Shown one piece after another: positions 2-64,000 of a stretch of DNA of 64,000 bases. Position numbers and translations under genes: made by a program. Location of the stretch: IMG/VR virus record IMGVR_UViG_3300006162_000011. One strand, 5' to 3'. The notes under the pieces are model-generated. The model did not search any database. It saw only the letters and a program-made list of their open reading frames with translations, and was not told the origin of the DNA. Positions within the stretch are counted from its first letter, which is position 1, and each line of letters starts with the position of its first letter. The stretch comes from a virus.

Positions 2-334
2 GTGAAACACAACGACCGTTACGTTGCCGATCCGAACCCGAATCCGGATCTCAAGGCGTATCCGACTCTTGTGGTCACCAAGTTCACGTCTAAGCATAAA
101 GCGCTCGACAAAGCTGCGGAGCTGGAATCGGCGGAATGGAGACGCCATCCGGATGGGTACGTGGATGCGTACGGGGCGGATTACGGCTATTATGTATCGG
201 TCGATCCCTATCCGCTCAAGCCCATCGTGGCCGTTCCCGTGCCCGACGCGATCATGTCGGGCGTCATGTCCTCGACACCCGGCATCGGCGCGAAACGCGG
301 CATATTCGGCACTAAGCGTGAGCGTCTCCCATGA
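2..334 (+). CDS. hypothetical protein, probably 5'-truncated by the window edge
   Basis: Frame is open from base 2. Its TGA (332-334) overlaps the next ATG (331) as ATGA, which suggests translational coupling. No motif recognised. Confidence 0.4.
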   Translation: MKHNDRYVADPNPNPDLKAYPTLVVTKFTSKHKALDKAAELESAEWRRHPDGYVDAYGADYGYYVSVDPYPLKPIVAVPVPDAIMSGVMSSTPGIGAKRGIFGTKRERLP

Positions 335-2049
335 GTGAGCGCAAACTCCATATTGCACCTGGATTGTCGTTGCCGCTGTCCGCCGTCACCGAGACCTTCG
401 CGGTGTTAGCCAAACGTGGCATGGGCAAGACCTATACTGCCGCTGTGATGGCCGAGGAGATGCTCAAGGTAGGAGCCCAGATTGTCGTCTGCGATCCTGT
501 CGGTGTCTGGTGGGGTCTGCGTTCAGGTTCCGACGGCAAGTCCCCCGGACTGCCGATCATTGTCATGGGCGGCGAACACGGTGACATCCCTTTGGACGAG
601 ACCACAGGGGCAATCGTGGCCGAATTTATCGTGGACACCGGATCGTCGGTAGTGCTGGATCTTGGATTACTCCGCAAGGGTGCCATGATCCGGTTCATGA
701 CGGACTTCGCCGAGAAGCTTTACCACGCAAAAGCCCCCGAGGCGAAGCGGTCACCACTTCACATGTTTCTGGACGAGGCCGACGCCTTCGCTCCGCAAAA
801 GCCACAACCCGACCAAGCCCGGTTACTCGGTGCCATGCAAGACCTCGTACGACGTGGCCGAGCCCGCGGTGTGGGTATCACCATGATTACTCAGCGGTCG
901 GCAGTGTTGAACAAGGACGTGTTGACACAGGCGGAAGTGCTGGTGCCGTTACGTACAATCAGCCCGCAAGACCGAAAGGCCATCGAAGAGTGGATCGACA
1001 TTCACGCCGACAAGTCCGAAGCGAATACGGTGCTTGATTCCCTGCCGTCGTTACCGAAAGGCACGGCGTGGTTCTGGAGTCCGGGATGGTTGGATATTTG
1101 CCAGAAGGTAAATGTACGGAAGAGGGAAACGTTTGACTCCAGCGCGACCCCGGAGTTTGGCAAGTCGTACAAGAACATCCAGCTCGCTCCCGTCGATCTG
1201 GATGCGCTGAAAACCAAAATGGCGGCTACGATCGAGAAAGCCAAGGCCGACGACCCGCGAGAACTGCGCGCCGAGATCGCACGTCTCAAACGCGAACTGT
1301 CAGCGGGTTTCGGCAAGCCGCGCGTCGAAGAGAAAATCAAGATTGTCGAGCGCCGGATCGAAGTCGTGCCCAAAGAAGTCAAGAAAGAATTCGACCGGTT
1401 GCAGGAGAAATTGCGGCTGGTGCAGGGGCACGTCGAGTTGTTGACACAAGCTATGGGGCGGTTACCGGACACCGCTGCGGAGCATCGTGCCAGCACGCCG
1501 ATTACCGTCAGCCACGTTACTCGATCCATCTACCCCCCATCGGTCATGAAGCATATCGCACCGAATTGTGATGGAGCGGGAAAACTCCGTGCCGGTGCCG
1601 AGCGCATGTTATCGGCTCTCGTACAGTGGTCGCCGGAAGGGATGGCTATCGGTCAAATGCGGTCTCACGCCGGGATGAAGAAGTCCGGCACGTTCACGAC
1701 ATACATGTCGGATTTACGCAAAGGCGTTTACATCGACGAGCGCGACGGCAAGGTATACGCGACCGAGGAAGGACTAAAGTATTTCGGTGGCAACGTACCA
1801 TCCGCGCCGACCACGACCGAAGAAGTGTTGTCCATATGGGAGCCGAAGCTCCGGGACGGCGCACGCCGTATCCTGCGTGTCCTCGTCGATGCCGGTGGCG
1901 ACCCCGTATCCATGGAAGACTTGACGGCAAAGGCGAACCTAGCAAAATCTGGGACGTTCACGACTTACCTTAGCGATTTGCGGACGGCGCGATTGATTAC
2001 CACAGAACGCGGGCAGGCGTCCGCCAATCGGGAAACGTTATTTTTGTAA
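331..2049 (+). CDS. P-loop NTPase, HerA/FtsK (DUF87)-like, with two C-terminal winged-helix-like repeats
   Basis: Walker A 'AKRGMGKTY', Walker B 'HMFLDEADAF' and 'ITMITQRSAVLNKDVL', as in HerA/VirB4/FtsK-type translocases. The C-terminus carries two repeats with 'KSGTFTTY(M/L)SDLR'. Confidence 0.7.
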   Translation: MSERKLHIAPGLSLPLSAVTETFAVLAKRGMGKTYTAAVMAEEMLKVGAQIVVCDPVGVWWGLRSGSDGKSPGLPIIVMGGEHGDIPLDETTGAIVAEFIVDTGSSVVLDLGLLRKGAMIRFMTDFAEKLYHAKAPEAKRSPLHMFLDEADAFAPQKPQPDQARLLGAMQDLVRRGRARGVGITMITQRSAVLNKDVLTQAEVLVPLRTISPQDRKAIEEWIDIHADKSEANTVLDSLPSLPKGTAWFWSPGWLDICQKVNVRKRETFDSSATPEFGKSYKNIQLAPVDLDALKTKMAATIEKAKADDPRELRAEIARLKRELSAGFGKPRVEEKIKIVERRIEVVPKEVKKEFDRLQEKLRLVQGHVELLTQAMGRLPDTAAEHRASTPITVSHVTRSIYPPSVMKHIAPNCDGAGKLRAGAERMLSALVQWSPEGMAIGQMRSHAGMKKSGTFTTYMSDLRKGVYIDERDGKVYATEEGLKYFGGNVPSAPTTTEEVLSIWEPKLRDGARRILRVLVDAGGDPVSMEDLTAKANLAKSGTFTTYLSDLRTARLITTERGQASANRETLFL

Positions 2050-2097
2050 ACGGATACTGATTTTTCTGGTTATCCACAGCCTGCTCGTGTTAGGAAT

Positions 2098-2105
2098 TGT
2101 ATACA
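2098..2105. promoter_or_regulatory. TGTATACA palindrome; its TATACA (2100-2105) is a -10-like hexamer 7 nt upstream of ATG 2113
   Basis: Sequence AATTGTATACAGATCACTATG. No Shine-Dalgarno before ATG 2113. Same 8-mer as five other sites in the window. Confidence 0.35.
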
Positions 2106-2112
2106 GATCACT

Positions 2113-2718
2113 ATGGCTTACTTTCTCCCCGACGGATATGTAGAGCGACTCGACGCTCCCCAGACCTACGACATCGGCGGCGACGACACCTGGCAGCGGG
2201 AAGTGTACGAGACGGCGTTGAAATTATCCGAAGCCCTCGACCTGACGACCGTGCTCGACTTTGGCTGCGGCTCCGGATTCAAGCTGATGAAGTATTTTGG
2301 GATAAACCCGAAGTACACTACGATTGGGGTGGATCTGGCTCCTGCTGTCGAGATACTGAAACGCCTTTACCCGAACGGCTGGTGGAGTACGGCTGAAAAC
2401 CTGAACTGCCTGCCACCAGGTCTACTAATCTGTTCCGACGTAATCGAGCACGTGAACGATCCCGGTCAACTGTGTTCCTTGTTCAAGTATATCGGGCCTC
2501 GGTGGCTAGTCATTAGCACACCCGACCGGGAGTTGATGGCGAGACACCCAAAGTGGACGAACCGCATGGGGCCGCCGGGGAACCAGTGCCACGTCCGTGA
2601 GTGGTCGTTCGGAGAGTTTCGTCAGTTCATGGATATCCATTTCGACGTGGTTCGGCATTTTCACTCAAACCTCGATCAGTGCACACAATGCTGCATCTGT
2701 AGACTAAAGACTCCATAA
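2113..2718 (+). CDS. class I SAM-dependent methyltransferase
   Basis: Motif I 'VLDFGCGSGFK' and post-motif 'LICSDVIEHVNDP', typical of the Methyltransf_11/23-type fold. Confidence 0.8.
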   Translation: MAYFLPDGYVERLDAPQTYDIGGDDTWQREVYETALKLSEALDLTTVLDFGCGSGFKLMKYFGINPKYTTIGVDLAPAVEILKRLYPNGWWSTAENLNCLPPGLLICSDVIEHVNDPGQLCSLFKYIGPRWLVISTPDRELMARHPKWTNRMGPPGNQCHVREWSFGEFRQFMDIHFDVVRHFHSNLDQCTQCCICRLKTP

Positions 2719-2732
2719 AGGCTGGCACGGTC

Positions 2733-4076
2733 ATGATAGCGTTCTGCACAACGGCAAAGGGGCGAACCGGGCACATCACGCAAACTCTGGCCCGCAATCT
2801 GGCCGACAACGCCACATACCCGGATTGCAAATTCATCGTACTCGGGTACGCGAACACCGGCCCGAATTGCGACAGCGACGGTCTGATCGATTACATCCGC
2901 GCCCATCACATGCCCGACATCGAGTCCGGCCGGCTGGTGTTTTACAGCTACCCGTGCGACGGGCCGTTTGAAATGGCCAAGGCCAAGAACATCGTTCACC
3001 GCTGCGGGCTGCGCGAAGGCGCCGACGTGCTCGTTAACCTAGACGCCGACAACTTCACGTTTCAGGGATTTGCGGAATCGGTATCGAATCACTTCAGCGA
3101 TCTCAAGAACCGCGACACATTCCTGGCCGCTAAAGTCATACCCGGCCAAGGCAGGCAATTCCGCGGCTGTTCTGGCCGTATCTGTGTCACGTCCGCGCAA
3201 TTCCTGAACGCTGGCGGTTACGACGAGCGGTACACAACATACGCGCCCGACGACAAGGACTTTAACCGAAGGTTGCAACGGCTCGGGTACGCGGCGGTCG
3301 AAATCGACCCGCGATATTTCCGGTGCGTGCCACACAATGACGCCGTGCGGTTCCGGGAGTACCCACACGTCAGAGAACTCGTGGACGATTACGAGAAGCA
3401 GTTAGCTGACGGCCCCGATGCCACGATTGTCAATTTTGGCAACGTCGGGTGCGGGACGGTGTACAGGAATTTTTCAGACAAACCAATAACACTTGGCCGG
3501 ATACCGACGCGGATATTCGGTATCGGGTTGCACAAGACGGCAACGAACTCGCTCACGTCGGCGCTAAGGATTTTGGGATTTGACGCCAGTCATTGGGAGT
3601 CGCCGCGCAAGGCCCGCAACATCTGGTTCGAGATGAAGGACGCGGGCCGGTCGCTGACGATCGAGCGCCATTACGCCACGAGCGATTTGCCGGTGTCGAT
3701 ACTGTACAGAGAACTGGACGCCGCGTATCCGGGATCGAAATTCGTGCTCACGGTACGGCCCGAGCAAGAGTGGTTGAACAGTGTCCGGAGTCATTGGGAC
3801 ACCGCTCACAATCCATGGCGGGCGTCGTGGGACACGGACTGTTTCACGAACCGTATCCATACCGAAGTGTATGGACGGAAATCGTTCGACGAGAAAGTGT
3901 TTCTGGAACGATACCGGAAACACAATGAAGACGTATACGATTACTTCCTCGGCAGACCCGGCGACCTGCTGTGCATGGATATGGGTCGTTTCGGAGATGG
4001 CTGGCCTGCGTTGTGTGGGTTTCTCGGCAAAATAGTACCGAACGTGCCGTATCCCCGCGAGTACGTTACACTTTGA
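2733..4076 (+). CDS. fusion protein: N-terminal GT-A (family 2-like) glycosyltransferase, C-terminal sulfotransferase-like domain
   Basis: N-terminal half has 'VLVNLDADNF' (DxD) and 'AGGYDERYTTYAPDDKDFNRRLQRLGY'. C-terminal half has 'GIGLHKTATNSLTSALRILGF' and 'YPGSKFVLTVRPEQEWLNSV', resembling the PAPS-binding loop and core of the Sulfotransfer_4-type family. Confidence 0.7.
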   Translation: MIAFCTTAKGRTGHITQTLARNLADNATYPDCKFIVLGYANTGPNCDSDGLIDYIRAHHMPDIESGRLVFYSYPCDGPFEMAKAKNIVHRCGLREGADVLVNLDADNFTFQGFAESVSNHFSDLKNRDTFLAAKVIPGQGRQFRGCSGRICVTSAQFLNAGGYDERYTTYAPDDKDFNRRLQRLGYAAVEIDPRYFRCVPHNDAVRFREYPHVRELVDDYEKQLADGPDATIVNFGNVGCGTVYRNFSDKPITLGRIPTRIFGIGLHKTATNSLTSALRILGFDASHWESPRKARNIWFEMKDAGRSLTIERHYATSDLPVSILYRELDAAYPGSKFVLTVRPEQEWLNSVRSHWDTAHNPWRASWDTDCFTNRIHTEVYGRKSFDEKVFLERYRKHNEDVYDYFLGRPGDLLCMDMGRFGDGWPALCGFLGKIVPNVPYPREYVTL

Positions 4077-4092: not shown

Positions 4093-4455
4093 ATGAGCAA
4101 GAAGCACAAACAGCATCAACACAGGAGCGATACGATGAGTGAAGAGATGAACGAGACACAAGCACAGGATCAGCAGCAAGCTCAACAGGCTTCGAGCGAA
4201 GCCACAGCAGCAGTTCCCGAAATCCAATCCGAGGTGCCGGAAGCGGTAGCGCCAATCGAGACCGCATCCGAGCCCGAGCCCGAGCCCGCAACCGTTGTTG
4301 CGCCATCGATTATCGAACTCGCGACCGAAGCGCGCGCCGAGTATGACGCGTTGCCGGAAGCGGCCAGAGGTATGTTGCACGGCGCGATCAATGACATCGA
4401 GACCAGATTCGATGTCAAACTCCCGAGTCTACACACGCTCTTTGGCGTGAGGTAA
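4093..4455 (+). CDS. hypothetical acidic, low-complexity protein
   Basis: 120-aa ORF in the operon between the transferase genes and the packaging genes. Q/E/A-rich. Confidence 0.5.
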   Translation: MSKKHKQHQHRSDTMSEEMNETQAQDQQQAQQASSEATAAVPEIQSEVPEAVAPIETASEPEPEPATVVAPSIIELATEARAEYDALPEAARGMLHGAINDIETRFDVKLPSLHTLFGVR

Positions 4456-4465
4456 TCCAGATCAG

Positions 4466-5092
4466 ATGAGCACATTATCGATCATCGTTCTCAGTATCCT
4501 CGCCGCCATCTTCGGCGTCGTCCTGTTGACCGCCATCGGTGTGCTCATCTGGTTGCTGATCCGGCAGCACAAACTGGCGCTCGCTTCAGCTCAGTCGTTT
4601 CTCGATCTCCAGTCGGCACTGTCAAAATCCCTCACCGACCATGCGTCTACATTAACGTTGCTATCTGGCCAAATCAGCGCTACCCTAGAAGTCCACAGGT
4701 CTAAGTTCGATGAGCAAATCTCCCGCATCCGCGGTGACAAACTCGAAGCCGCAGCCCAAGCCTTCGTCGAAAGCCTCCCGCGGCAAGCGCAACTCGCCTC
4801 GCGTATCGAAAACGCGGCCATCGTCTTCGGTAACCTCGTCAAAGTCATTACCGAAGAACAAGGCATCTCGGGTTCGGCCATTCAGCGCGCCGAAGCCAGC
4901 GGTCTCGGCCCCGAGTCCTACGCCCCAGCCGGTCTCGGTGAACACTACGTCAGCCGATCTAAGACAGCCGCTGGAGACGCCGCCGACCGCGAGCGAGAAT
5001 CGTCCGATAACACCGCAGCCGACATCGACGGAACAGGAGCCGGAATCAGCAACGACGACGGAGTCTTCCGAGCCCCGAACGAGTTCCGGTGA
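4466..5092 (+). CDS. hypothetical membrane-anchored protein
   Basis: N-terminal hydrophobic helix 'LSIIVLSILAAIFGVVLLTAIGVLIWLLI', then a helical region. The 3' third overlaps the next ORF in another frame. Confidence 0.5.
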   Translation: MSTLSIIVLSILAAIFGVVLLTAIGVLIWLLIRQHKLALASAQSFLDLQSALSKSLTDHASTLTLLSGQISATLEVHRSKFDEQISRIRGDKLEAAAQAFVESLPRQAQLASRIENAAIVFGNLVKVITEEQGISGSAIQRAEASGLGPESYAPAGLGEHYVSRSKTAAGDAADRERESSDNTAADIDGTGAGISNDDGVFRAPNEFR

Positions 5093-5765
5093 TGACGGTG
5101 ACGATGCCAGTCACCAAACGTTATCACCACCCATAATCTCGGCCCTCGACCGTCTCGCCCCTCACCGCGCCCGCACCGCGTGGGCGTTGCAAAAAGCCGG
5201 TGTGGCGCCCGAGCGCATCGCGCAGCGTCTGCGTATCCCCGTTGAGCAAGTCCAGCAGGCCGTGGACGACATGGAAGCCGCGAGACTCCAGATATCGTCC
5301 GACATCATCGACATGGCCGTGAACGCCGAAGTACTGACCGCCATGTATGGCGCGGGCCGTCGAATCCAAACCGCCATGCAGGCGATGCGATGGACTGGTG
5401 ACCTAGACAGTGAGGGCCGCCGTATCATGGAGCCCGACCACGCTGTCGCGCTAGACGCGATTACCGTGGCTGGTGATCTGGTCGAGAAAGTCCGGCCCAA
5501 GAGTGGCGGCGGTGTGGCCGTAAACGTGGGAATCAACAACAACGGCAATAACGGGAACGGTGTTGGTACCGTCAAGACTTTCGAGCAGCGTGTCCGCGAG
5601 AAGCGCGGTGTACTGCCTGAGGGTGATGTTAAGTTCTTGTCGGATGGTAAAGGCGAGGAAATCGTGGACGGCGATTTGATTGACGATGAAGACGACGAAC
5701 TAGAAGACGACGAACTAGGCGACGGCACCAGCGATGCCGAAATCGAGGAAGCGGACAACCAATGA
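4710..5765 (+). CDS. terminase small subunit candidate (start uncertain)
   Basis: The C-terminal ~220 aa have an HTH-like 'ALQKAGVAPERIAQRLRIPVEQVQQAV', a helical core and an acidic tail. The stop overlaps the terL start (ATGA at 5762-5765). In this frame there is no ATG/GTG/TTG between GTG 4938 and TTG 5187. The N-terminal S/P/T/K-rich part overlaps the 4466-5092 ORF. Confidence 0.5.
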   Translation: MSKSPASAVTNSKPQPKPSSKASRGKRNSPRVSKTRPSSSVTSSKSLPKNKASRVRPFSAPKPAVSAPSPTPQPVSVNTTSADLRQPLETPPTASENRPITPQPTSTEQEPESATTTESSEPRTSSGDDGDDASHQTLSPPIISALDRLAPHRARTAWALQKAGVAPERIAQRLRIPVEQVQQAVDDMEAARLQISSDIIDMAVNAEVLTAMYGAGRRIQTAMQAMRWTGDLDSEGRRIMEPDHAVALDAITVAGDLVEKVRPKSGGGVAVNVGINNNGNNGNGVGTVKTFEQRVREKRGVLPEGDVKFLSDGKGEEIVDGDLIDDEDDELEDDELGDGTSDAEIEEADNQ

Positions 5766-34596: not shown

Positions 34597-35679
34597 ATGC
34601 CTCTGCCGCCCATTGTCTACATTACCGATTCCAGCAGCCAGCAGTGGCAAATTGCCTGCACGAATGCCGCGGTGCTCCGGTCCGTCCCGATCTCGGGCGG
34701 TCAGCCCGTCGTGCCCCACGTGTACGTCAACAGCGTTACCGACGGTCTGTCGTACGAAATCTCAATCGTCGGGAACCCGCCGCCGGTAGGGCGCTCGTGG
34801 GGAGATTTTCTCGTCACCAGTGTTCCACAGGGGCAATACCCGACGCAGATACTGATTAACGCTCCCAACGGCACCGTGTACGCGTTGCAGGTTGCCACCG
34901 TCGGGCCACCGATTATCGGATCGACGACACAAGGAATCCTGCAAACGGCGCTGCCGGTGTCGGGGTATAACTGCAACACGCCGATATCGGCGCTAGCTGG
35001 GAATGTGCTCGCGAGGTTGGAAGAGAATTACGCAAGCGGGATTGATGCCGGGCCGGTGTTCTGGAATACCCAGTTCGAAATCAACGCTGGGATTGTAGAG
35101 GCGTTGAACGAGACTATTCTGCTTGTCGGCAGACCGACACAAACCGTAAACGTGCAGTTCAATCTGGTTCCGAACACCCCGTGGCAGCAAATCCCGAAAG
35201 GCGTTCTGCTTTTGACTGACATCTGGGGAGGACAGAGCAGGCTCCGCAAAGTCTCCCTCTGGGACATGGATTACTCTCAGAGCAGTTGGGGCAGTGATTG
35301 GGAAAACGACGTAAGCGACAGCGGCCCCCAGCGATGGTTTCCTTTGGGCTTCGGAGCGTTCGGTATTCATCCGGCACCGTCCACACCGCAAATAGTTTTA
35401 CTCGACGGCATCGCGTATCCGACCATCAGTACGTACCCGTATGACGGAAGCCAAATCATGCCGTTCGAGAATCACTGGTTCGAAATGTTCGAGATGTACT
35501 GCGCCGTATACAGCCGCTTGAAAGAGGGCTCCCAAGAGTTCCAAGAGTCCATGCCCATGCTACAGAACTTCTACAAGCTCGCGGAGCGTATGACGCAGAT
35601 TCAAGATAGGCGAGACCCAATCGTGTTCAGTCAGAGCTTCGGCGGAACAGTGGGAGTTAACGCTCTCAAGAAGCGTTAG
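34597..35679 (+). CDS. hypothetical structural protein
   Basis: 360-aa ORF starting 1 nt after the previous stop. The 3' end overlaps the convergent HNH-AP2 gene by 14 nt. Confidence 0.65.
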   Translation: MPLPPIVYITDSSSQQWQIACTNAAVLRSVPISGGQPVVPHVYVNSVTDGLSYEISIVGNPPPVGRSWGDFLVTSVPQGQYPTQILINAPNGTVYALQVATVGPPIIGSTTQGILQTALPVSGYNCNTPISALAGNVLARLEENYASGIDAGPVFWNTQFEINAGIVEALNETILLVGRPTQTVNVQFNLVPNTPWQQIPKGVLLLTDIWGGQSRLRKVSLWDMDYSQSSWGSDWENDVSDSGPQRWFPLGFGAFGIHPAPSTPQIVLLDGIAYPTISTYPYDGSQIMPFENHWFEMFEMYCAVYSRLKEGSQEFQESMPMLQNFYKLAERMTQIQDRRDPIVFSQSFGGTVGVNALKKR

Positions 35680-46621: not shown

Positions 46622-46665
46622 CGTATACATTTCTCTTGACATCGGCGCGTCTCGCGTATACATTT
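46622..46665 (+). promoter_or_regulatory. sigma70-like promoter flanked by two CGTATACATTT repeats
   Basis: CGTATACATTT at 46622-46632 and 46655-46665. TTGACA at 46636-46641, then 17 nt, then TACATT at 46659-46664. ATG 46673 follows after 8 nt with no Shine-Dalgarno. Confidence 0.5.
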
Positions 46666-46672
46666 GCAGTCG

Positions 46673-46885
46673 ATGACTACCGTGAAATCAAAATCCAAAC
46701 CAAAGCCCAACAAGCTGAACTCCGTGATCTCGATGCGGGTGTCCGACAAGACGCGGAAGGCGATTCTCAAGCGCGGCAAGGAACTCGGATACCGGAAACC
46801 GTCTGAGATTCTCGATCAAGCACTCGATCACTGGATGCAGTGCGATCGAGTTGGCAAGAAGACCGCTACTGGAGGTGCCAATTGA
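46673..46885 (+). CDS. ribbon-helix-helix (CopG/Arc-like) DNA-binding protein
   Basis: 'SVISMRVSDKTRKAILKRGKELGYRKPSEILDQALDHW' fits a beta-strand plus two-helix RHH pattern. First gene after the promoter. Confidence 0.6.
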   Translation: MTTVKSKSKPKPNKLNSVISMRVSDKTRKAILKRGKELGYRKPSEILDQALDHWMQCDRVGKKTATGGAN

Positions 46886-47256
46886 GCGACGACACCAATA
46901 CTACGATTGACGAGATCATCCCCGAGCCCAGCGCGCCTGCACCGAAAGACTCGATTACCGAAACTATCACTGTCCAGTTCTCTGCCGACATCCCACGGTC
47001 TCGGCACGCCAAAATCCTGCGTCAAGTCACCAACATACTGCACGCGTTACTGGCGAATTCAATGCGGTACGCGGCCATCGGCGACGGCAATAACGCCGGC
47101 GCGGGGTTCCAGATTCACCAGCAGACGTACACGGCGGCGGCAAATCTGGACGCGGCGGCGACGGCCTTGGAGCAGTCCATGAAACAGGTGTTGACGGGCG
47201 GGATGCCGCCAGCGCCGGGGCAGGGCGGACACGGCGGCCTGATAGGGCGAGCGTAG
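46882..47256 (+). CDS. hypothetical protein
   Basis: TTG 46882 lies 6 nt after GGAGG and overlaps the RHH stop (TTGA). 124 aa. Confidence 0.5.
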   Translation: MSDDTNTTIDEIIPEPSAPAPKDSITETITVQFSADIPRSRHAKILRQVTNILHALLANSMRYAAIGDGNNAGAGFQIHQQTYTAAANLDAAATALEQSMKQVLTGGMPPAPGQGGHGGLIGRA

Positions 47257-47265
47257 GAGAGACCA

Positions 47266-47520
47266 ATGTCTGACGCTAGTGTTCTCGACTCCATTATCGT
47301 GATTTGCGCGGAACAGGGCAATAAGCCAGCGACCGCCGATTCCAACATCGTAGACGATCTTGGGCTGGATTCGCTTGACCTGTCGTCGGTCGCGATGTCG
47401 ATCGAAATCCAGTATCCAGCCGTGGGCGATATCGACTACGATCCCGCCACCATGCAGACGTGTCGCGATCTGGCCAACGTCGTCGAGGCCCGACTGAAAG
47501 CCAAGTCTGTCAATGCTTGA
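47266..47520 (+). CDS. acyl carrier protein-like (phosphopantetheine-binding)
   Basis: 'IVDDLGLDSLDLSSVAMSIE' matches the ACP DSL attachment-site helix II pattern. 84 aa, acidic. AGGAGA Shine-Dalgarno. Confidence 0.75.
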   Translation: MSDASVLDSIIVICAEQGNKPATADSNIVDDLGLDSLDLSSVAMSIEIQYPAVGDIDYDPATMQTCRDLANVVEARLKAKSVNA

Positions 47521-48250
47521 CGCTAATTCCCATATTGACGTGTTCTCGACGTTCGCGCCCGACTACCGTTTCGGGAACTGCTTCGTGCGCGTATACGACC
47601 ATACCGACACCGCTACTTTCGGGCAGCATTTCATTTACGACGAATTGTACCAAGCGTGTCTGGCGTCGGCCCCGTCGCGGCCTTACGGTACGCTGTCTGA
47701 GTTATGCTGTGGCATGGCCGACCTCTCGGCGGACGCGGTGTGTTCCTATCTGCATTCGCGGTCGCCGTTACTCCTGTTCTGTGTTGACAAAGATAGCCCC
47801 AATGACCTTCCCCATAACCCCACCGCCCAAGAAGGCGAATCCGAGTCCGACGACTCAGGATCGTTCGACGTAATCGGGTTCGCCTTCCCCTCCATTGTGG
47901 CGGGTCCACCTGTCGGTAAGTTCGATCCAGATCCCGGTCGGACGGCTTTGATCGGGTACACGATATTCAAGCCAGCTTACCGCACACCGGAAGCGGTCGT
48001 GTGCACCATGCTCATGGGCGTATACTTTTTTCACAAATTCAACCTGCTCACCTTGCAAGGCCAGTCGTATCCGTGGAACCGGCTCACGCGGAAGTTTCTA
48101 GCGCAATTCGGCACGCGCACGCTAGCTGAACCCATCCCGGCGTTCCTGTTTGACGGCACCAAAATGGTGGACAGTTACCATAGTGTGCTGGAGCGGTCGG
48201 TGTTTGCCCGGTACGTTGAGAAAGTGCTCACGGACTGCGTCAGCCTGTAA
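47513..48250 (+). CDS. hypothetical protein, GNAT/acyltransferase-like C-terminal half (tentative)
   Basis: The start overlaps the ACP gene by 8 nt. 'ALIGYTIFKPAYRTPEAVVCTMLMGVYFFHKFNLLTLQGQSYPWNRLTRKFLAQFGTRTL' resembles the GNAT-fold core. No canonical RxxGxG motif seen. Confidence 0.55.
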   Translation: MLDANSHIDVFSTFAPDYRFGNCFVRVYDHTDTATFGQHFIYDELYQACLASAPSRPYGTLSELCCGMADLSADAVCSYLHSRSPLLLFCVDKDSPNDLPHNPTAQEGESESDDSGSFDVIGFAFPSIVAGPPVGKFDPDPGRTALIGYTIFKPAYRTPEAVVCTMLMGVYFFHKFNLLTLQGQSYPWNRLTRKFLAQFGTRTLAEPIPAFLFDGTKMVDSYHSVLERSVFARYVEKVLTDCVSL

Positions 48251-48319
48251 CGAGACTGGACTGGGTAACCGTTTTACCACATTGACAGATTAGGCTACAA
48301 TAGCTGCGAGGAAACTCTC

Positions 48320-48916
48320 GTGGGCATCATGAACAAGGGCAGCAGTACCACTGCCCCGTCGCCACAGGTCACGTCCGGCATGACCGCCGACCAGAACGCG
48401 TTGGCGGCTCTCGTCAATCAACAGACACAGCAATCCGATCAACTGTTCTCGCTGACGGAGCCCGGTCTCGTCACCGCCGAGAACTACTACCAGACACTGG
48501 CCTCGGGTGACCCCGGTGCCATCATGCGCGCGATAGCGCCGCAGGCCCAGCAAACGTCACAGGCTGCGGCGGGGGCCAAGAAGAACATTATGGACAACGC
48601 ACCCGCCGGTGGCGAGAAAAATCTCGCTCTCGAACAAGTTGACGTAAACCGCGGGGCGCAGATTGCAGGGTCTGCAAGTGGTGCTGTCCAGGCCGCTCCG
48701 GCATCGTTAGGTAAAATCGCCGGTCAAGGTATTGGGGAATCCCAAACAGCAACCGGGTTAGCGTCTGGCGCTCTCGGGCAGTCCCTGAGCGGATGGTCGT
48801 CTCTGGGCGGTATGCAGCTCCAAGAGCAGCAAATCCAAGCGCAGGAAAAGGGACAGCAACTCGGCGCGGCCAGCTCGGCAGCCAGTGACGCGGCCATGAT
48901 GCTGATGTTCGCGTAA
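48320..48916 (+). CDS. internal virion/ejection-like protein (small)
   Basis: 198-aa Q/A/G-rich protein with a hydrophobic C-terminus. First of three consecutive such genes. Confidence 0.6.
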   Translation: MGIMNKGSSTTAPSPQVTSGMTADQNALAALVNQQTQQSDQLFSLTEPGLVTAENYYQTLASGDPGAIMRAIAPQAQQTSQAAAGAKKNIMDNAPAGGEKNLALEQVDVNRGAQIAGSASGAVQAAPASLGKIAGQGIGESQTATGLASGALGQSLSGWSSLGGMQLQEQQIQAQEKGQQLGAASSAASDAAMMLMFA

Positions 48917-48937: not shown

Positions 48938-50713
48938 ATGCCTACCAACCAACAACCACAGCCGTGGAGCGAGCAAGCCCCAGTAGGGGCACCCGTATTC
49001 GATCCCACGAAGCCCTACGAGGCTCCGGAATCGTCATCGGTACCGCCGCCGATTACATCGCCTCCGGCTAACCCGCTCGCCAACGCCCCCGACAAACCTG
49101 CACCCTCAATGTGGGGCAATAACGGCGCTGCCAAGGCCGCTAGCGCCGCCTATATTGGCGATTCCGTCCTCAAGGGCATCATGAAAGGGCGACAGGCCAA
49201 GCAAGAGCAGGACACGTACAAACTCAACCGACTCATGCAGGGGTTGCAGTATGCCGCCCAGACCTCCGGGGACGCTTACGTCAGCCTGATCAAGAACGGT
49301 GCCGATCCAAAGTCCCCGGAAGCGCAGGCGGCGTTGGCTGGTGCAGATGCGGCGCGACAGCAGATGCTGACGATGTACAGCAATTACGTCGAAGGACAAG
49401 ATAAGGGTAAAAAGGGCAAGAAAAGTGGGAATGCTAAAGGGGGTGATCAAGCGGGAGCAAATGGCGGTCAACCCAGTCAGCAGGAAATAGCGGTCATGCT
49501 TACGTCTCCCGACCCGAAAGAAAAAGTAAAAGGAATATTCCTGATGACGAGCCATGCGACCCCGTGGTACCGGATTGCCGGACGGTATTACGCGTCACCG
49601 GAATACAAGCGGGCGAAACAGAACGCGGCGGGCGAGCAGCAGTTAGCTGGAATCACGACAGCGTCCAAACTAGACGTAGCCACTCTGGAAAAAGCCGAGC
49701 GGGAAGGCACAATCAACGCCGACGACAAGAAGAAACTCGACGCCTATCGTAATCAGGCAACCGCCGGAGAAGAGGGAAAAGAGAGTGCTCAGGTTCGCGG
49801 GATGCGGTCAGGACTCAAGGCTGCCGGGCTCGACGACGATACGATCAAAAAGGTCATCACCAGTCACTACGGTGGTGCGGGAATGCGCGGCACGTCCGTG
49901 CAGCAGAAATACGCTGACGCCGTCCAAGACGCAGTTGACAACGGTCGAGATCCGGCCACGGACCCGGCTGCACAACAACTTGCCAAAGCCATTGCCGCCG
50001 AGCATCCGCCGGCAGAGCGAGCGGCTACACTGAAACTCCCCGACGGCAAGCAGGCAGCGGGCAAAGTGTCCCATGAAGGTGATTTACTGCTGGCAGATGG
50101 CAGCAAGGCACCGGCGGGAACGATGCTGTACCAGCAGCCGAACTACGCGTCCGTAATCGGTCAGGTACAGGAAACCAAGACGCAAACAGTCATCGATGAT
50201 CGCGGCATTCCCACGATTATGCGCTGGAACCCGATCACGAGGAATTACGATATACCCGTGGGCTCAAGCGCGTCAGGCGCGTACGGTCACGAGGAAGTGC
50301 AAGCCGGAGCCGTGTCCCGCGCCGGCGGCGATTTGATTAAAGACATACAGGCCAACCGTGAGCAACTGGGGACATTGGCGGCTTGGGTCAAGAAGCACGG
50401 CATCAACACACCAATCGGCGACCCTAAGCTGGCTGGATTACAGTCGGAACTAAAGACGTTTGCGGCCCTACAGCCCGCCATGCACGGATTCCGGTCAAGG
50501 AGCGCTCAAGAAGCGTTCGAGAACATTATTGGGGACTTGCAGAAGAACCCGGATGCCACGATTGCATCGATTCAGGGCATCATGAAGACCGCCGGAGCGA
50601 TCAATCCGAACCTGGGGAAAGGGGGCGCGGGCGATACAGGGGGCGACAGCGCTAAGCGTAAACGGAATCCGTCCAAGCCCGCCGACCCCAACGATCCTCT
50701 CGGTATACGGTAG
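48938..50713 (+). CDS. internal virion/ejection-like protein
   Basis: 591-aa protein, largely helical and low-complexity (A/K/Q/G-rich). Confidence 0.7.
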   Translation: MPTNQQPQPWSEQAPVGAPVFDPTKPYEAPESSSVPPPITSPPANPLANAPDKPAPSMWGNNGAAKAASAAYIGDSVLKGIMKGRQAKQEQDTYKLNRLMQGLQYAAQTSGDAYVSLIKNGADPKSPEAQAALAGADAARQQMLTMYSNYVEGQDKGKKGKKSGNAKGGDQAGANGGQPSQQEIAVMLTSPDPKEKVKGIFLMTSHATPWYRIAGRYYASPEYKRAKQNAAGEQQLAGITTASKLDVATLEKAEREGTINADDKKKLDAYRNQATAGEEGKESAQVRGMRSGLKAAGLDDDTIKKVITSHYGGAGMRGTSVQQKYADAVQDAVDNGRDPATDPAAQQLAKAIAAEHPPAERAATLKLPDGKQAAGKVSHEGDLLLADGSKAPAGTMLYQQPNYASVIGQVQETKTQTVIDDRGIPTIMRWNPITRNYDIPVGSSASGAYGHEEVQAGAVSRAGGDLIKDIQANREQLGTLAAWVKKHGINTPIGDPKLAGLQSELKTFAALQPAMHGFRSRSAQEAFENIIGDLQKNPDATIASIQGIMKTAGAINPNLGKGGAGDTGGDSAKRKRNPSKPADPNDPLGIR

Positions 50714-50715
50714 CT

Positions 50716-52830
50716 ATGTCGTCCACGGCGCTCAATCCGTTAGTCGATAAGATTCGTAACGCCCACCCCGGCGTGTACGACGACATGGACGACGCCACGC
50801 TGACCAAGAAGGTTCTCGCCAAGTACCCGCAGTATTCCGACTTGGCAGTCCCCGATCCGAAATCTGCGCCGAAGCCTGCCGTCCCCAAAGAGCTTGCTCC
50901 TCCGTCGTTCTCGGAACGCGTCGGTGAGCGTATACGACAGACCGCTTCCATGATCCCGAACGCCATCGAGGGGCACACTGCGTCGTACCAGAGCGGTCTG
51001 ACGACACCAAAAGCCAAGGCCGAAGCCCAGAAAGAACTAGACGAGGCCACTGCGGGCAGACGGCACATGACGGGCGCGGACGCGGAACCGATTTTGGGGT
51101 CCAAGACGCTAGGGAAAGCCGTAGGCGCTGTCACTATCGGCCCTCGAATAGTAATCGATCAGGCCAAACAGTATGCCCACGACCCTGCGGCGCTGGTGGG
51201 CGACGTTGTGCTGCTGTTCCCGGAACTGGCTGAAATGCGCGCCCCCGGAAACAAGACGTTCAAGCCGGGCGAGTCCCCGGCACCTAAAGCCACAACTCCC
51301 GATCCGGCGTACACAAAAGCTCTCGACAAGGCCAACGAGGGCTTTTCGGCCGACGCCAAGGTGTATAACGACAAAATCACCAAGTCGTTCGACGAAGCCA
51401 AACGCGAGCACACCGAGAACGTGGCCAAATACGAACAGGAGGCCAAGACCCACGCCGAGAAATCCAGTGAAGCCCGTGCCAAGTGGATCAAGGAATGGAG
51501 CGATTACCGGAAAGCCGAAGTCGAGTCCCGTGACGCTGCCCAGCGCGCGCAGACATTGGCAAAGGGAGTCAAGGACACGGTCAAATCCGTATACGACAAC
51601 CTCAAGCAGACTTACGAAACCGGACGCAAGGCTCTTAACGGGCGCTGGAGTGTCTGGAACAAGGACGTAGCTGGGATATCCCGCGACCCCAAGGGGGTGT
51701 TCGATGCCATTGAGGAAGCCAAGGCCAAGCAGTTGCGCGGCGCTCCCGGTAGCCTGCCGGAGTTCAATAATCTGCTTCATGAGCTAGGCGTGCAGGAGTT
51801 CGAGACAGCGCCAGATGGCACCAAGCAGGCCGTACCGGGGCAGAGTCCGATTCCGATTGAGACTTTGCGAGCACACTACTCTGCGGTTGCGCGTCGGATC
51901 ATCAAAGGCGGCTTACCGGGCAACATGTATCACGCCCTTGAAGACGTGCGCGCCGCTCTCGATAAGCAGATCGTTGACGGCATCAAAGACCGGATGGCTA
52001 ACCAGCACCCGTTGTATACGGCATCCGGCGGCGCGCCGATCCGCGATCTGGTGTCCGAGTACGAGGCGCTCAAAGCCGACGAAGGACAATTCCTGACCGA
52101 CTGGGAAGGGAAGATCAAAGTTGGCAAACACCGTGTCAAGAGCCCGCTATCGATGGCGTTCGAGCAGCTCGACCCCAATTATCTGGAGCCGAAAATTCTG
52201 GGAGTCGGCAACGAATACATCGCCAAGCAGTTGGAAAAGTACAAGCAGTACGGTGCTGACTCGACGTTGTTGTCGAAAGCCACTCAGCTAGAGAGTGAAG
52301 CGAAAGCCGCAGCCAAGGTCAAGGTAAAGACACCGAAGGAGCCGTCGGCAGAACCACCCAAGGAAGGGGTGGCACCGGCTAAACCGGAATTGCCTCATAA
52401 GGCCGTGCCTGAATCGCCGGAGTTGAAATCCGTTGAGCGACCGGAAGCCGCAGCGCGCAAACTCGGAATGATGTCGAAGGCGGCAGCCAAAATTGTGGGT
52501 AAACTGGGTGGGGCCTTAGCAGGCAGCGTCGTAGGTCACCCGATGGTAGGATGGGCAGCGGGCGGCGAGCTAGCGCCCGAGATACTGAGCCGCATTATGG
52601 AAGCCAAAGGAAAATCGGCTGCCGGGGCAGTCACCCCCGCTGAGATGAACGCATTACCGACAGTCGAAAAGACCGGTATTCAGAACGGAATCGCACGAAG
52701 ATTGGTAGAGGCCGCCGAGAAAGGTGAGCCGCTACCGCCACTGGAGAAATTCAGGTCGGTGCTGACCGATGAGCAGATGCGGCAAGTGATGCAGGCGGCA
52801 ATGAAAGGCGGGACAGGTTCCGTACAGTGA
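50716..52830 (+). CDS. internal virion/ejection-like protein (largest)
   Basis: 704 aa. N-terminus 'LVDKIRNAHPGVYDDMDDATLTKKVLAKYPQYSDL', then long K/E/A-rich helices. C-terminal hydrophobic segment 'AAKIVGKLGGALAGSVVGHPMVGWAAGG'. Confidence 0.75.
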   Translation: MSSTALNPLVDKIRNAHPGVYDDMDDATLTKKVLAKYPQYSDLAVPDPKSAPKPAVPKELAPPSFSERVGERIRQTASMIPNAIEGHTASYQSGLTTPKAKAEAQKELDEATAGRRHMTGADAEPILGSKTLGKAVGAVTIGPRIVIDQAKQYAHDPAALVGDVVLLFPELAEMRAPGNKTFKPGESPAPKATTPDPAYTKALDKANEGFSADAKVYNDKITKSFDEAKREHTENVAKYEQEAKTHAEKSSEARAKWIKEWSDYRKAEVESRDAAQRAQTLAKGVKDTVKSVYDNLKQTYETGRKALNGRWSVWNKDVAGISRDPKGVFDAIEEAKAKQLRGAPGSLPEFNNLLHELGVQEFETAPDGTKQAVPGQSPIPIETLRAHYSAVARRIIKGGLPGNMYHALEDVRAALDKQIVDGIKDRMANQHPLYTASGGAPIRDLVSEYEALKADEGQFLTDWEGKIKVGKHRVKSPLSMAFEQLDPNYLEPKILGVGNEYIAKQLEKYKQYGADSTLLSKATQLESEAKAAAKVKVKTPKEPSAEPPKEGVAPAKPELPHKAVPESPELKSVERPEAAARKLGMMSKAAAKIVGKLGGALAGSVVGHPMVGWAAGGELAPEILSRIMEAKGKSAAGAVTPAEMNALPTVEKTGIQNGIARRLVEAAEKGEPLPPLEKFRSVLTDEQMRQVMQAAMKGGTGSVQ

Positions 52831-62769: not shown

Positions 62770-63414
62770 CTAAAACACTTTGATTTGATCCGGTTCCAGA
62801 TCCAGACCCCACTGATCGCCGTCCATGAACAGGTTCATCTGTGGTTTGTACACGATAGCGTTTATCCGCTTCCACGTGAACCACGTGACGGCCTGTAGTT
62901 GACACGGCACAATCCCCAACTCACCGGCCACTTCGCGGTATCCGTCGGCGATTTTGTGGTAATCGAACTTGGCTCTGACAGCCTGTTTCATCGTCATACG
63001 GCGACCGACCCAGACGCAGTAGGCATGACCGTCAATCGTGACCGGATAATGGTTCGACGGGTCCATGATGTTCTGGTAAAAGTTCCTCGTCTTTAACCCT
63101 TTCGTAAACGACAGGAAATCGTCACCCGATATACACCGTCGTGCTCTCGCCCGACACGCGCCATACCCGGCACCCTTGCCGCCTTCCAACATGTCTTTGA
63201 CAGCACGCAAATTCGTCATGTAAGCGTTATTCGGACTCAGTGCACAGAACATGCCAACGACAGACGATAGGGGTAACCCGTACACGTTGGCGAGCCGATT
63301 TAGCGTGGACCGGTACCGCGGAAACGCCGTCATACCCTCGTCACGGTCTACGCGATCGGCTTGATGCCAGACACGCCGGATATTGTCGAGATTACGGTCG
63401 CGAGTCGCGCTCAT
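62770..63414 (-). CDS. hypothetical protein
   Basis: ATG 63414 overlaps the upstream HNH stop (ATGA). 214 aa. 'ALSPNNAYMTNL...KTRNFYQNI...VTIDGHAYCVW...LQAVTWFTWK'. Confidence 0.6.
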   Translation of the reverse strand: MSATRDRNLDNIRRVWHQADRVDRDEGMTAFPRYRSTLNRLANVYGLPLSSVVGMFCALSPNNAYMTNLRAVKDMLEGGKGAGYGACRARARRCISGDDFLSFTKGLKTRNFYQNIMDPSNHYPVTIDGHAYCVWVGRRMTMKQAVRAKFDYHKIADGYREVAGELGIVPCQLQAVTWFTWKRINAIVYKPQMNLFMDGDQWGLDLEPDQIKVF

Positions 63415-63770: not shown

Positions 63771-64000
63771 TAGTGGGCCTCGCCCCAAGACGGTCCAAAA
63801 CCACTCTCGGCCTCAATCGGCACAATCAGCTTCGTCGTCGATGTCAGCGCCCACGTCACCGTGGCGTCTACAGCGTCCCTAGTGTCTTTATCGTCTGGCA
63901 ATTGGTGCAAGACTTCATCATGCACGGGCAAGAGAGGCTCGACACCCCGCACGTGTTTCAATACGTCCCACATCGCCATCATCGCGCGCTTCAGGATCGT
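63770..64000 (-). CDS. family A DNA polymerase, C-terminal end (5' part lies beyond the window)
   Basis: '...LLPVHDEVLHQLP' resembles Pol I motif C (VHDE). The frame is open to the window edge. Confidence 0.65.
   Translation of the reverse strand, partial: TILKRAMMAMWDVLKHVRGVEPLLPVHDEVLHQLPDDKDTRDAVDATVTWALTSTTKLIVPIEAESGFGPSWGEAH

Follow-up and report, generated by a model that had tools for sequence, protein, structure and literature searches.

The toxin-activating acyltransferases (TAATs; HlyC, CyaC and ApxC of PF02794, and CdiC) are GNAT-like enzymes that take an acyl group from an acyl carrier protein (ACP) and N-acylate lysines, often in a Gly-Lys context. RimJ and RimL (Acetyltransf_3, PF13302) modify the N-terminal alpha-amines of proteins, and in the MbtK/MbtL and FeeM/FeeL pairs a small dedicated carrier is encoded beside a GNAT-fold N-acyltransferase. 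Picornavirus VP4 and reovirus mu1 are internal proteins, released at entry, whose N-terminal Met-Gly is acylated by the GNAT-fold N-myristoyltransferase (NMT) to engage membranes. Here we describe, in a 64,000-nucleotide (nt) stretch of viral DNA (IMG/VR virus record IMGVR_UViG_3300006162_000011; the whole stretch is referred to below as the window), an operon that encodes an ACP and a divergent GNAT-fold protein directly 5' of three genes for putative ejection proteins (Table 1). We tentatively propose, at somewhat less than even confidence, that the GNAT acylates an ejection protein in an ACP-dependent manner, most likely at the N-terminus of the first of the three, a protein of 198 amino acids (aa).

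The preliminary description of this locus had called the C-terminal half of the 245-aa protein GNAT- or acyltransferase-like. The fold assignment held and its limitation to one half did not: an AF2 model obtained with 19 homologues (pLDDT, 85; pTM, 0.84) matched RimJ, RimL, and other GNATs in the PDB with full-length coverage and Foldseek E values of about 1e-7, so that, on the evidence of the model, the whole protein is a GNAT fold. The best structural matches were 3igr, 6c30, and 6c37; 348 matches were found at E≤1e-3, and the top 50 listed were essentially all GNAT-type acyl- or acetyltransferases. The acyltransferase domain of NcdE was also among the Foldseek matches. The 245-aa protein itself gave no match in Pfam, PHROG, or PADLOC; 3 of 20 homologues matched PF13302 (best E value, 0.0017), one homologue matched the RimJ model NF008072 at 3e-6, and distant relatives found with a GNAT family profile exceeded the PF13302 gathering score. 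When this profile was searched exhaustively, it recovered only 129 clusters among 1.84 billion representatives.

The region of motif B, which aligns with that of RimJ, turned out to be well kept, with N189 present in 26 of 27 sequences, F199 in 25, and G200 in all 27, and a C-terminal Arg is conserved family-wide. At the position of motif A, RimJ reads RTGGGIAT, whereas the phage family has (Y/W)(R/G)(T/K)PE or WGT(E/Q)(D/E)Q. Thus, although RimJ and RimL are the best structural matches, their CoA-binding loop, Q/RxxGxG/A, is absent from the phage family, and while they use acetyl-CoA the donor of the phage GNAT is presumably acyl-ACP. An altered cofactor loop of this kind would suit a donor that offers a pantetheine arm without an ADP moiety. 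Two other identities were rejected for the 245-aa protein. Its fold, that of a GNAT, rules out a phosphopantetheinyl transferase (PPTase), and the HlyC/CyaC-type family that had been put forward earlier was abandoned, as none of 20 members matched PF02794 at E≤10; the affinity is instead with the RimJ/RimL-type Acetyltransf_3 enzymes. In some relatives (for which L and P numbers are our handles), namely L023:3675-4949, L028:2890-4104, P0277, and P0284, a domain of ~150-190 aa is fused to the GNAT, at the C-terminus in some and at the N-terminus in others. It follows the pattern ...EESRxTIDAQ...YFFDP...LLGH...VVVQA.D.DGV.LQD... and is not an ACP; the domain carried by the two N-terminally extended proteins among the 129 clusters is likewise something other than an ACP.

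The 84-aa product of the gene that precedes the GNAT gene is, judging by its profile matches and conservation, a genuine ACP under selection. Taken alone, the window protein scored 19.8 bits against PF00550, just below the gathering cut-off of 20.8, and matched phrog_5934 at 5e-5; all 11 members of its family matched PF00550 (best, 1.8e-13), and the family profile matched solved ACPs in the PDB at E=4e-16. Phosphopantetheine is predicted to be attached at Ser36 (codon 47371-47373), and Asp35-Ser36 is invariant among the 11 positional homologues, which are 28-67% identical. The phosphopantetheine signature noted in the preliminary description was thus upheld both by the PP-binding profile and by conservation of the serine. 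A database search returned ~30 phage-clade ACP clusters before merging into AcpP proteins of the fatty-acid synthesis type and mitochondrial ACPs, and a D-S-[LM] motif was visible in nearly all of the 33 top clusters. The ACP and GNAT genes overlap by 8 nt in the window, exactly as in L006, L009, and L010; the overlap is 4-8 nt when L008 and L022 are also considered. Since the GNAT is the sole acyltransferase-fold protein found in the window, it is the only plausible partner for the phage ACP.

We retrieved related loci independently in two ways, through the GNAT and through the 198-aa protein. A GNAT homologue was found 5' of the 198-aa gene in all 17 loci retrieved through the 198-aa protein, and it also precedes that gene in all the GNAT-retrieved loci that extend far enough. 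The genes of the operon are found together in relatives, with the qualification that only about half of the loci include the ACP. The operon had been described as wedged between virion genes; for the GNAT this view was not sustained, because it is fixed in front of the 198-aa gene in the ejection cassette and fills the slot occupied by gp13 in T7 and gp14 in P22. In the GNAT tree, one major clade is uniformly ACP positive save for two nested losses (L001 and L011), and the other is ACP negative except for L029. No ACP remnant was detected in L001, where a 70-aa open reading frame (ORF) takes the place of the ACP gene.

A search of 50,697 phage records found nothing matching the cassette at either the DNA or the protein level, GTDB genomes gave no match, and this phage lineage is known only from metagenomes, mostly of peat and soil. 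A homologous phage contig of 102.7 kb (P0057; the same phage as L019 and L024) was deposited at NCBI within a metagenome-assembled genome (MAG) of a Candidatus Acidoferrales bacterium. This placement hints weakly at Acidobacteriota as the hosts, which agrees with the peat and soil origin of most contigs.

The slot itself has counterparts in well-studied short-tailed phages. In T7, gp13 lies directly 5' of a trio of 196, 747, and 1,318 aa, and in P22, gp14 lies directly 5' of a trio of 229, 471, and 609 aa, just as the window GNAT lies directly 5' of proteins of 198, 591, and 704 aa, which are identified as such a trio by position only. T7 gp13 ("internal virion protein A," PF11090) and P22 gp14 (PF11039, DUF2824) are small GNAT-like folds without known chemistry. 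When BFVD was searched with the 245-aa model in Foldseek, the matches included a DUF2824 protein, at E=3.3e-5 and with a target TM-score of 0.70, along with three entries that bear the name internal virion protein A (E, 3e-4 to 2e-3); generic GNATs scored equally well or better. Homology at the sequence level is not demonstrable: hhalign gave E values of 0.77 and 0.076 for T7 gp13 and P22 gp14, respectively, and there were no matches to PF11090 or PF11039. At 245 aa, the window protein is larger than T7 gp13 (138 aa) and P22 gp14 (151 aa), and it is also closer to the cellular RimJ-type GNATs. No ACP gene was seen in the T7 and P22 stretches inspected.

The 198-aa gene has a GAGGAA ribosome-binding site 6 nt 5' of its GTG start. 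Its product begins with (M)G(G)nK[GS] in the loci and in 92 of 120 database representatives, and most of the exceptions look like mis-called starts; the variants are MGK[GS], MGGKG, or others that retain Gly2 and a Lys-Gly within 3-14 residues. An MG start is found in only 5 of the 86 ORFs of the window. Methionine aminopeptidase removes Met before Gly, exposing the alpha-amine. The model of the 198-aa protein consists of three long helices, and the first 14 residues are predicted to be disordered. In some relatives the codon at the conserved start position of the 198-aa homologue is not ATG, GTG, or TTG but ACG or ATT (L012:556-600; P0065, P0082, and P0083), giving ...T-G-K-G or I-G-K-G, which suggests rare non-canonical initiation at the Met-Gly-Lys start. 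An SU10-type adaptor encoded at 34597-35676 fits a short-tailed phage, and the 198-, 591-, and 704-aa proteins fit the small, medium, and large sizes and the order of the podovirus ejection proteins tabulated in PMC8954989.

The following scheme would link these features. A conserved host-type promoter would transcribe the genes for a ribbon-helix-helix (RHH) protein, a 124-aa protein, the ACP, and the GNAT, after which the three putative ejection genes follow; the RHH protein probably autoregulates this promoter through GTATAC-containing repeats. The ACP would be converted to its holo form by a host PPTase and would receive a fatty acyl chain from the fatty-acid synthesis of the host. The RimJ-like GNAT, in the gp13/gp14 slot, would then move the acyl group from the phosphopantetheine arm of the ACP to an amine of an ejection protein, the likeliest acceptor being the Gly2 alpha-amine of the 198-aa protein after Met removal, or its nearby conserved Lys. 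The outcome would be a lipid anchor helping the 198-aa protein insert into the host envelope at infection, by a logic that may resemble that of the N-myristoylated penetration proteins of non-enveloped animal viruses or of the HlyC-activated RTX toxins. The gene identities, folds, synteny, conservation, and N-terminal motif are observations, while the chemical steps that connect them are proposals. The enzymology would fall within the ACP-dependent GNAT acyltransferases, an already known kind.

Compared with the described systems, the proposed one would combine familiar elements in a different way. The acceptor of a TAAT is a membrane-inserting protein from an adjacent gene, and the proposed acceptor here also comes from an adjacent gene; lipidation of CdiA is described in PMC8510554. 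The TAATs use the host ACP and an internal acceptor site, whereas the phage encodes its own ACP and the proposed acceptor site is N-terminal. The MbtK and FeeM systems belong to bacterial siderophore or N-acyl-amino-acid pathways that include an acyl-AMP ligase, while the phage genes lie in a virion cassette and no ligase was found in the window. NMT, which is supplied by the host, has a double GNAT fold and uses myristoyl-CoA as its donor; the analogous arrangement proposed here would employ a virus-encoded single GNAT and an ACP. Our literature search found no phage ACP-GNAT pair, no acylation of gp13, gp14, or ejection proteins, and nothing relevant on DUF2824; papers on marine podoviruses note a GNAT gene, which they read as a host-metabolism gene. 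A broader version of the proposal, in which tailed phages lipidate their own ejection proteins via a GNAT (here with a phage ACP) that N-acylates the Gly/Lys N-terminus of the first of them for insertion into the host envelope, and T7 gp13 and P22 gp14 are cryptic acyltransferases and not scaffolds, is in our estimation conceivable but improbable.

A number of observations weigh against acylation of the 198-aa protein, and many of them would be expected if the GNAT were a non-catalytic chaperone or scaffold for the ejection proteins and the ACP were unrelated cargo or had a structural or other role, an account that we regard as unlikely, though the likeliest of the alternatives. Scaffold or chaperone is the usual description of T7 gp13, whose Pfam name is "probable scaffold protein," and of P22 gp14, annotated as "head morphogenesis." The CoA pyrophosphate loop of motif A (Q/R-x-x-G-x-G/A) is missing family-wide, with no Gly-x-Gly/Ala, a loss that is equally compatible with a non-catalytic protein. 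Because about half of the cassettes lack the ACP yet retain the GNAT, the GNAT does not strictly need the phage ACP, and there are no ACP-GNAT fusions among the 129 family clusters. The interval 5' of the GNAT is, moreover, a hot spot where the cargo varies, with genes for a membrane protein, PAPS reductase, and DUF1643 among others, so the ACP could be independent cargo as well. We found no PPTase, acyl-ACP synthetase, or adenylating enzyme among the 75 other ORFs of the window, and the 10 kb upstream contained none of these in its precomputed Pfam annotation; since no such genes were found in these 74 kb of the 94.9-kb contig, the host would supply both the PPTase and the acyl chains. What speaks against this non-catalytic account is the Asp-Ser attachment site, whose invariance over such a deep divergence argues for use of the ACP as a carrier, together with the translational coupling of the ACP to the GNAT, its only candidate partner in the window. 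In addition, the motif B Asn and the FG are conserved in the 27 sequences along with further residues that surround the canonical cleft of the active site.

The proposed acceptor raises difficulties of its own. Pfam, PHROG, and PDB sequence searches with the 198-, 591-, and 704-aa proteins found no ejection-protein family (PF24072 and PF25688 included) and no solved ejectosome structure, although the 704-aa protein gave a weak PHROG tail match (E=0.076), and Foldseek with the 198-aa model returned nothing below E=1, T7 8e4g_a ranking third at E=2.1. The label "ejection protein" therefore rests on size, order, and helical composition; the three genes that had earlier been called ejection- or internal-virion-like do follow the operon, on the same strand, and a family or structural match for them did not emerge. 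The N-terminal motif of the 198-aa protein could serve packaging or proteolytic processing instead, and P22 gp7 does lose its first 20 residues. The ACP and GNAT might also form an active acylation system directed at a different target, such as another virion protein, a component of the host envelope, a host protein modified after ejection of the enzyme, or a small molecule (an N-acyl amino acid, as with FeeM/FeeL). We judge this distinctly unlikely, even though it shares the ACP and GNAT evidence with the acylation of the 198-aa protein, and the identity of the substrate is based only on adjacency and the conserved motif. There are established examples of ACP-dependent GNAT-fold enzymes whose products are small molecules or lipids (FeeM/FeeL, LuxI, OlsB, and MbtK), and the NcdE match mentioned above is in line with such a function. 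Against it stand the universal linkage of the GNAT to the 198-aa gene, the conserved Gly/Lys N-terminus of the 198-aa product, the lack of other biosynthetic genes in the window, and the fact that the genes are core to the cassette and not sporadic. The sharing of one operon by RHH and GNAT-fold proteins had also brought to mind a phage-borne antitoxin and toxin of the TacAT/AtaRT/KacAT type, an explanation that we consider extremely improbable: two genes lie between the one for the RHH protein and the one for the GNAT in the window, and as many as five do so in relatives, the RHH gene is missing from several relatives that retain the GNAT, and the GNAT, with 245 aa and without the acetyl-CoA loop, has no toxin-type Pfam or PADLOC match and is encoded by a gene that, like its neighbours, is fixed in the virion cassette throughout the phage lineage. 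Gene order, the loss of the cofactor loop, and the lack of a PADLOC match accordingly led us to reject a toxin-antitoxin or defence role.

Table 1. Features of the ACP-GNAT operon and the putative ejection genes (window coordinates)
Feature	Position	Strand	Length	Basis or remarks
Direct repeats CGTATACATTT	46622..46632 and 46655..46665	+	11-mer	Exact copies 33 bp apart; copy 2 overlaps the -10 hexamer
Sigma70-type promoter	46636..46664	+		TTGACA 46636-46641, 17-nt spacer, TACATT 46659-46664
RHH (CopG/Arc-like) DNA-binding protein	46673..46885	+	70 aa	phrog_7906 and homologue profile
Conserved small protein, no family assigned	46882..47256	+	124 aa	Homologues in relatives
Acyl carrier protein	47266..47520	+	84 aa	PF00550 and PDB profile match; contains DDLGLDSLDLSSVAM, within which the predicted attachment site lies
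Divergent GNAT-fold (RimJ/RimL-like) putative N-acyltransferase	47513..48250	+	245 aa	AF2 model, Foldseek, homologue profiles
First putative ejection protein, analogous to T7 gp14/P22 gp7	48320..48916	+	198 aa	Position, size, N-terminal motif
Conserved N-terminal Met-Gly-...-Lys-Gly motif of the 198-aa protein	48320-48343	+		Loci and database representatives
Second putative ejection protein	48938..50713	+	591 aa	Position and size only
Third putative ejection protein	50716..52830	+	704 aa	Position and size only

All the coordinates given previously for the promoter, its two flanking repeats, and the four tightly coupled genes after it were confirmed. The promoter matches the consensus at 10 of 12 positions and has the top promoter-like score across 44-54 kb, and five divergent relatives (L001, L003, L004, L005, and L029) also have a TTGACA-N17-TACATT-type promoter 5' of their RHH gene, more than expected by chance; by this comparative evidence the promoter is real. 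The repeat CGTATACATTT includes the palindrome GTATAC, and with up to one mismatch it occurs 5 times in the window, compared with 0.64 expected, a count reached in none of 100 shuffles. GTATAC repeats are likewise borne by the equivalent promoter of L004; the GTATAC-containing repeats are a putative RHH operator. The 70-aa protein alone matched phrog_7906 (Arc-like) weakly (E=0.027), while a profile of six positional homologues matched the CopG/RHH structure 6xrw at E=9e-4, with NikR and RHH antitoxins as the next matches, in agreement with its original assignment as an RHH protein. It is probably the regulator of the promoter that precedes it. A second promoter-like site, TTTACC-17-TACAAT (9 of 12 positions), lies at 48273-48301, in the 69-nt gap between the GNAT stop codon and the 198-aa gene, and the ejection genes may therefore have their own promoter as well.

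The 124-aa gene starts with a TTG at 46882 that overlaps the RHH stop codon (TTGA), a start supported by the homologues, which begin M-[SA]-D-[DE] at that point. The protein consists of a strand and helices followed by a Pro/Gly-rich tail ending in GRA, and Pfam and PHROG searches with it gave no match. Every relative for which the upstream region is covered has a homologue, distant and ACP-less relatives included; the tail is always Pro/Gly rich and ends exactly in G-R-A in close relatives and in basic residues in distant ones. Relatives usually encode a multi-pass membrane protein of ~115-165 aa after the 124-aa homologue and before the ACP or GNAT (for example, L006:9-401, L009:688-1119, L004:5078-5569, and L025:1582-2007, among others), which is missing in the window and in L022. 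In L041 (6199-6999 and also 4215-5491), DUF1643 and PAPS-reductase genes are found just 5' of the GNAT, and a GIY-YIG endonuclease gene stands between the GNAT and the 198-aa gene, insertions that make the cassette an insertion hot spot.

Elsewhere in the window, genes for a HerA-like helicase (331-2049), a Methyltransf_23 methyltransferase (2113-2718), and a Sulfotransfer_4 sulfotransferase (2733-4076) stand in a row at 331-4076; the relative L043 also has a sulfotransferase near a KTSC-domain gene. One ORF matches Thg1 (tRNA-His guanylyltransferase; E=2.8e-26), and ARAGORN finds no tRNA gene in the 64 kb. Other ORFs match VanY/Peptidase_M15, an AP2 domain, DUF7178, and two HNH endonucleases. 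Window position 331 maps to position 62896 (reversed) of the 94,874-bp contig k141_4339416 (L037), and window position 64000 falls past the contig end; the mismatch points to a differently permuted assembly of the same phage or to a circular genome.

How short-tailed phages deliver internal proteins into or across the host envelope is only partly understood, and T7 gp13 and P22 gp14, which are needed for infectious particles, have been without a biochemical explanation for decades. A GNAT in the gp13/gp14 slot coupled to a dedicated ACP points to acyl transfer and nominates the Met-Gly-Lys N-terminus as the substrate. Even if this interpretation is false, the cassette defines a small family of 129 clusters, so far confined to uncultured soil and peat phages. 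If it is true, this would be the first phage-encoded system for lipidation of a virion protein, with a parallel in the penetration proteins that are N-myristoylated in animal viruses. The interpretation is potentially far-reaching for phage entry, and it opens the function of T7 gp13 and P22 gp14 to direct tests.

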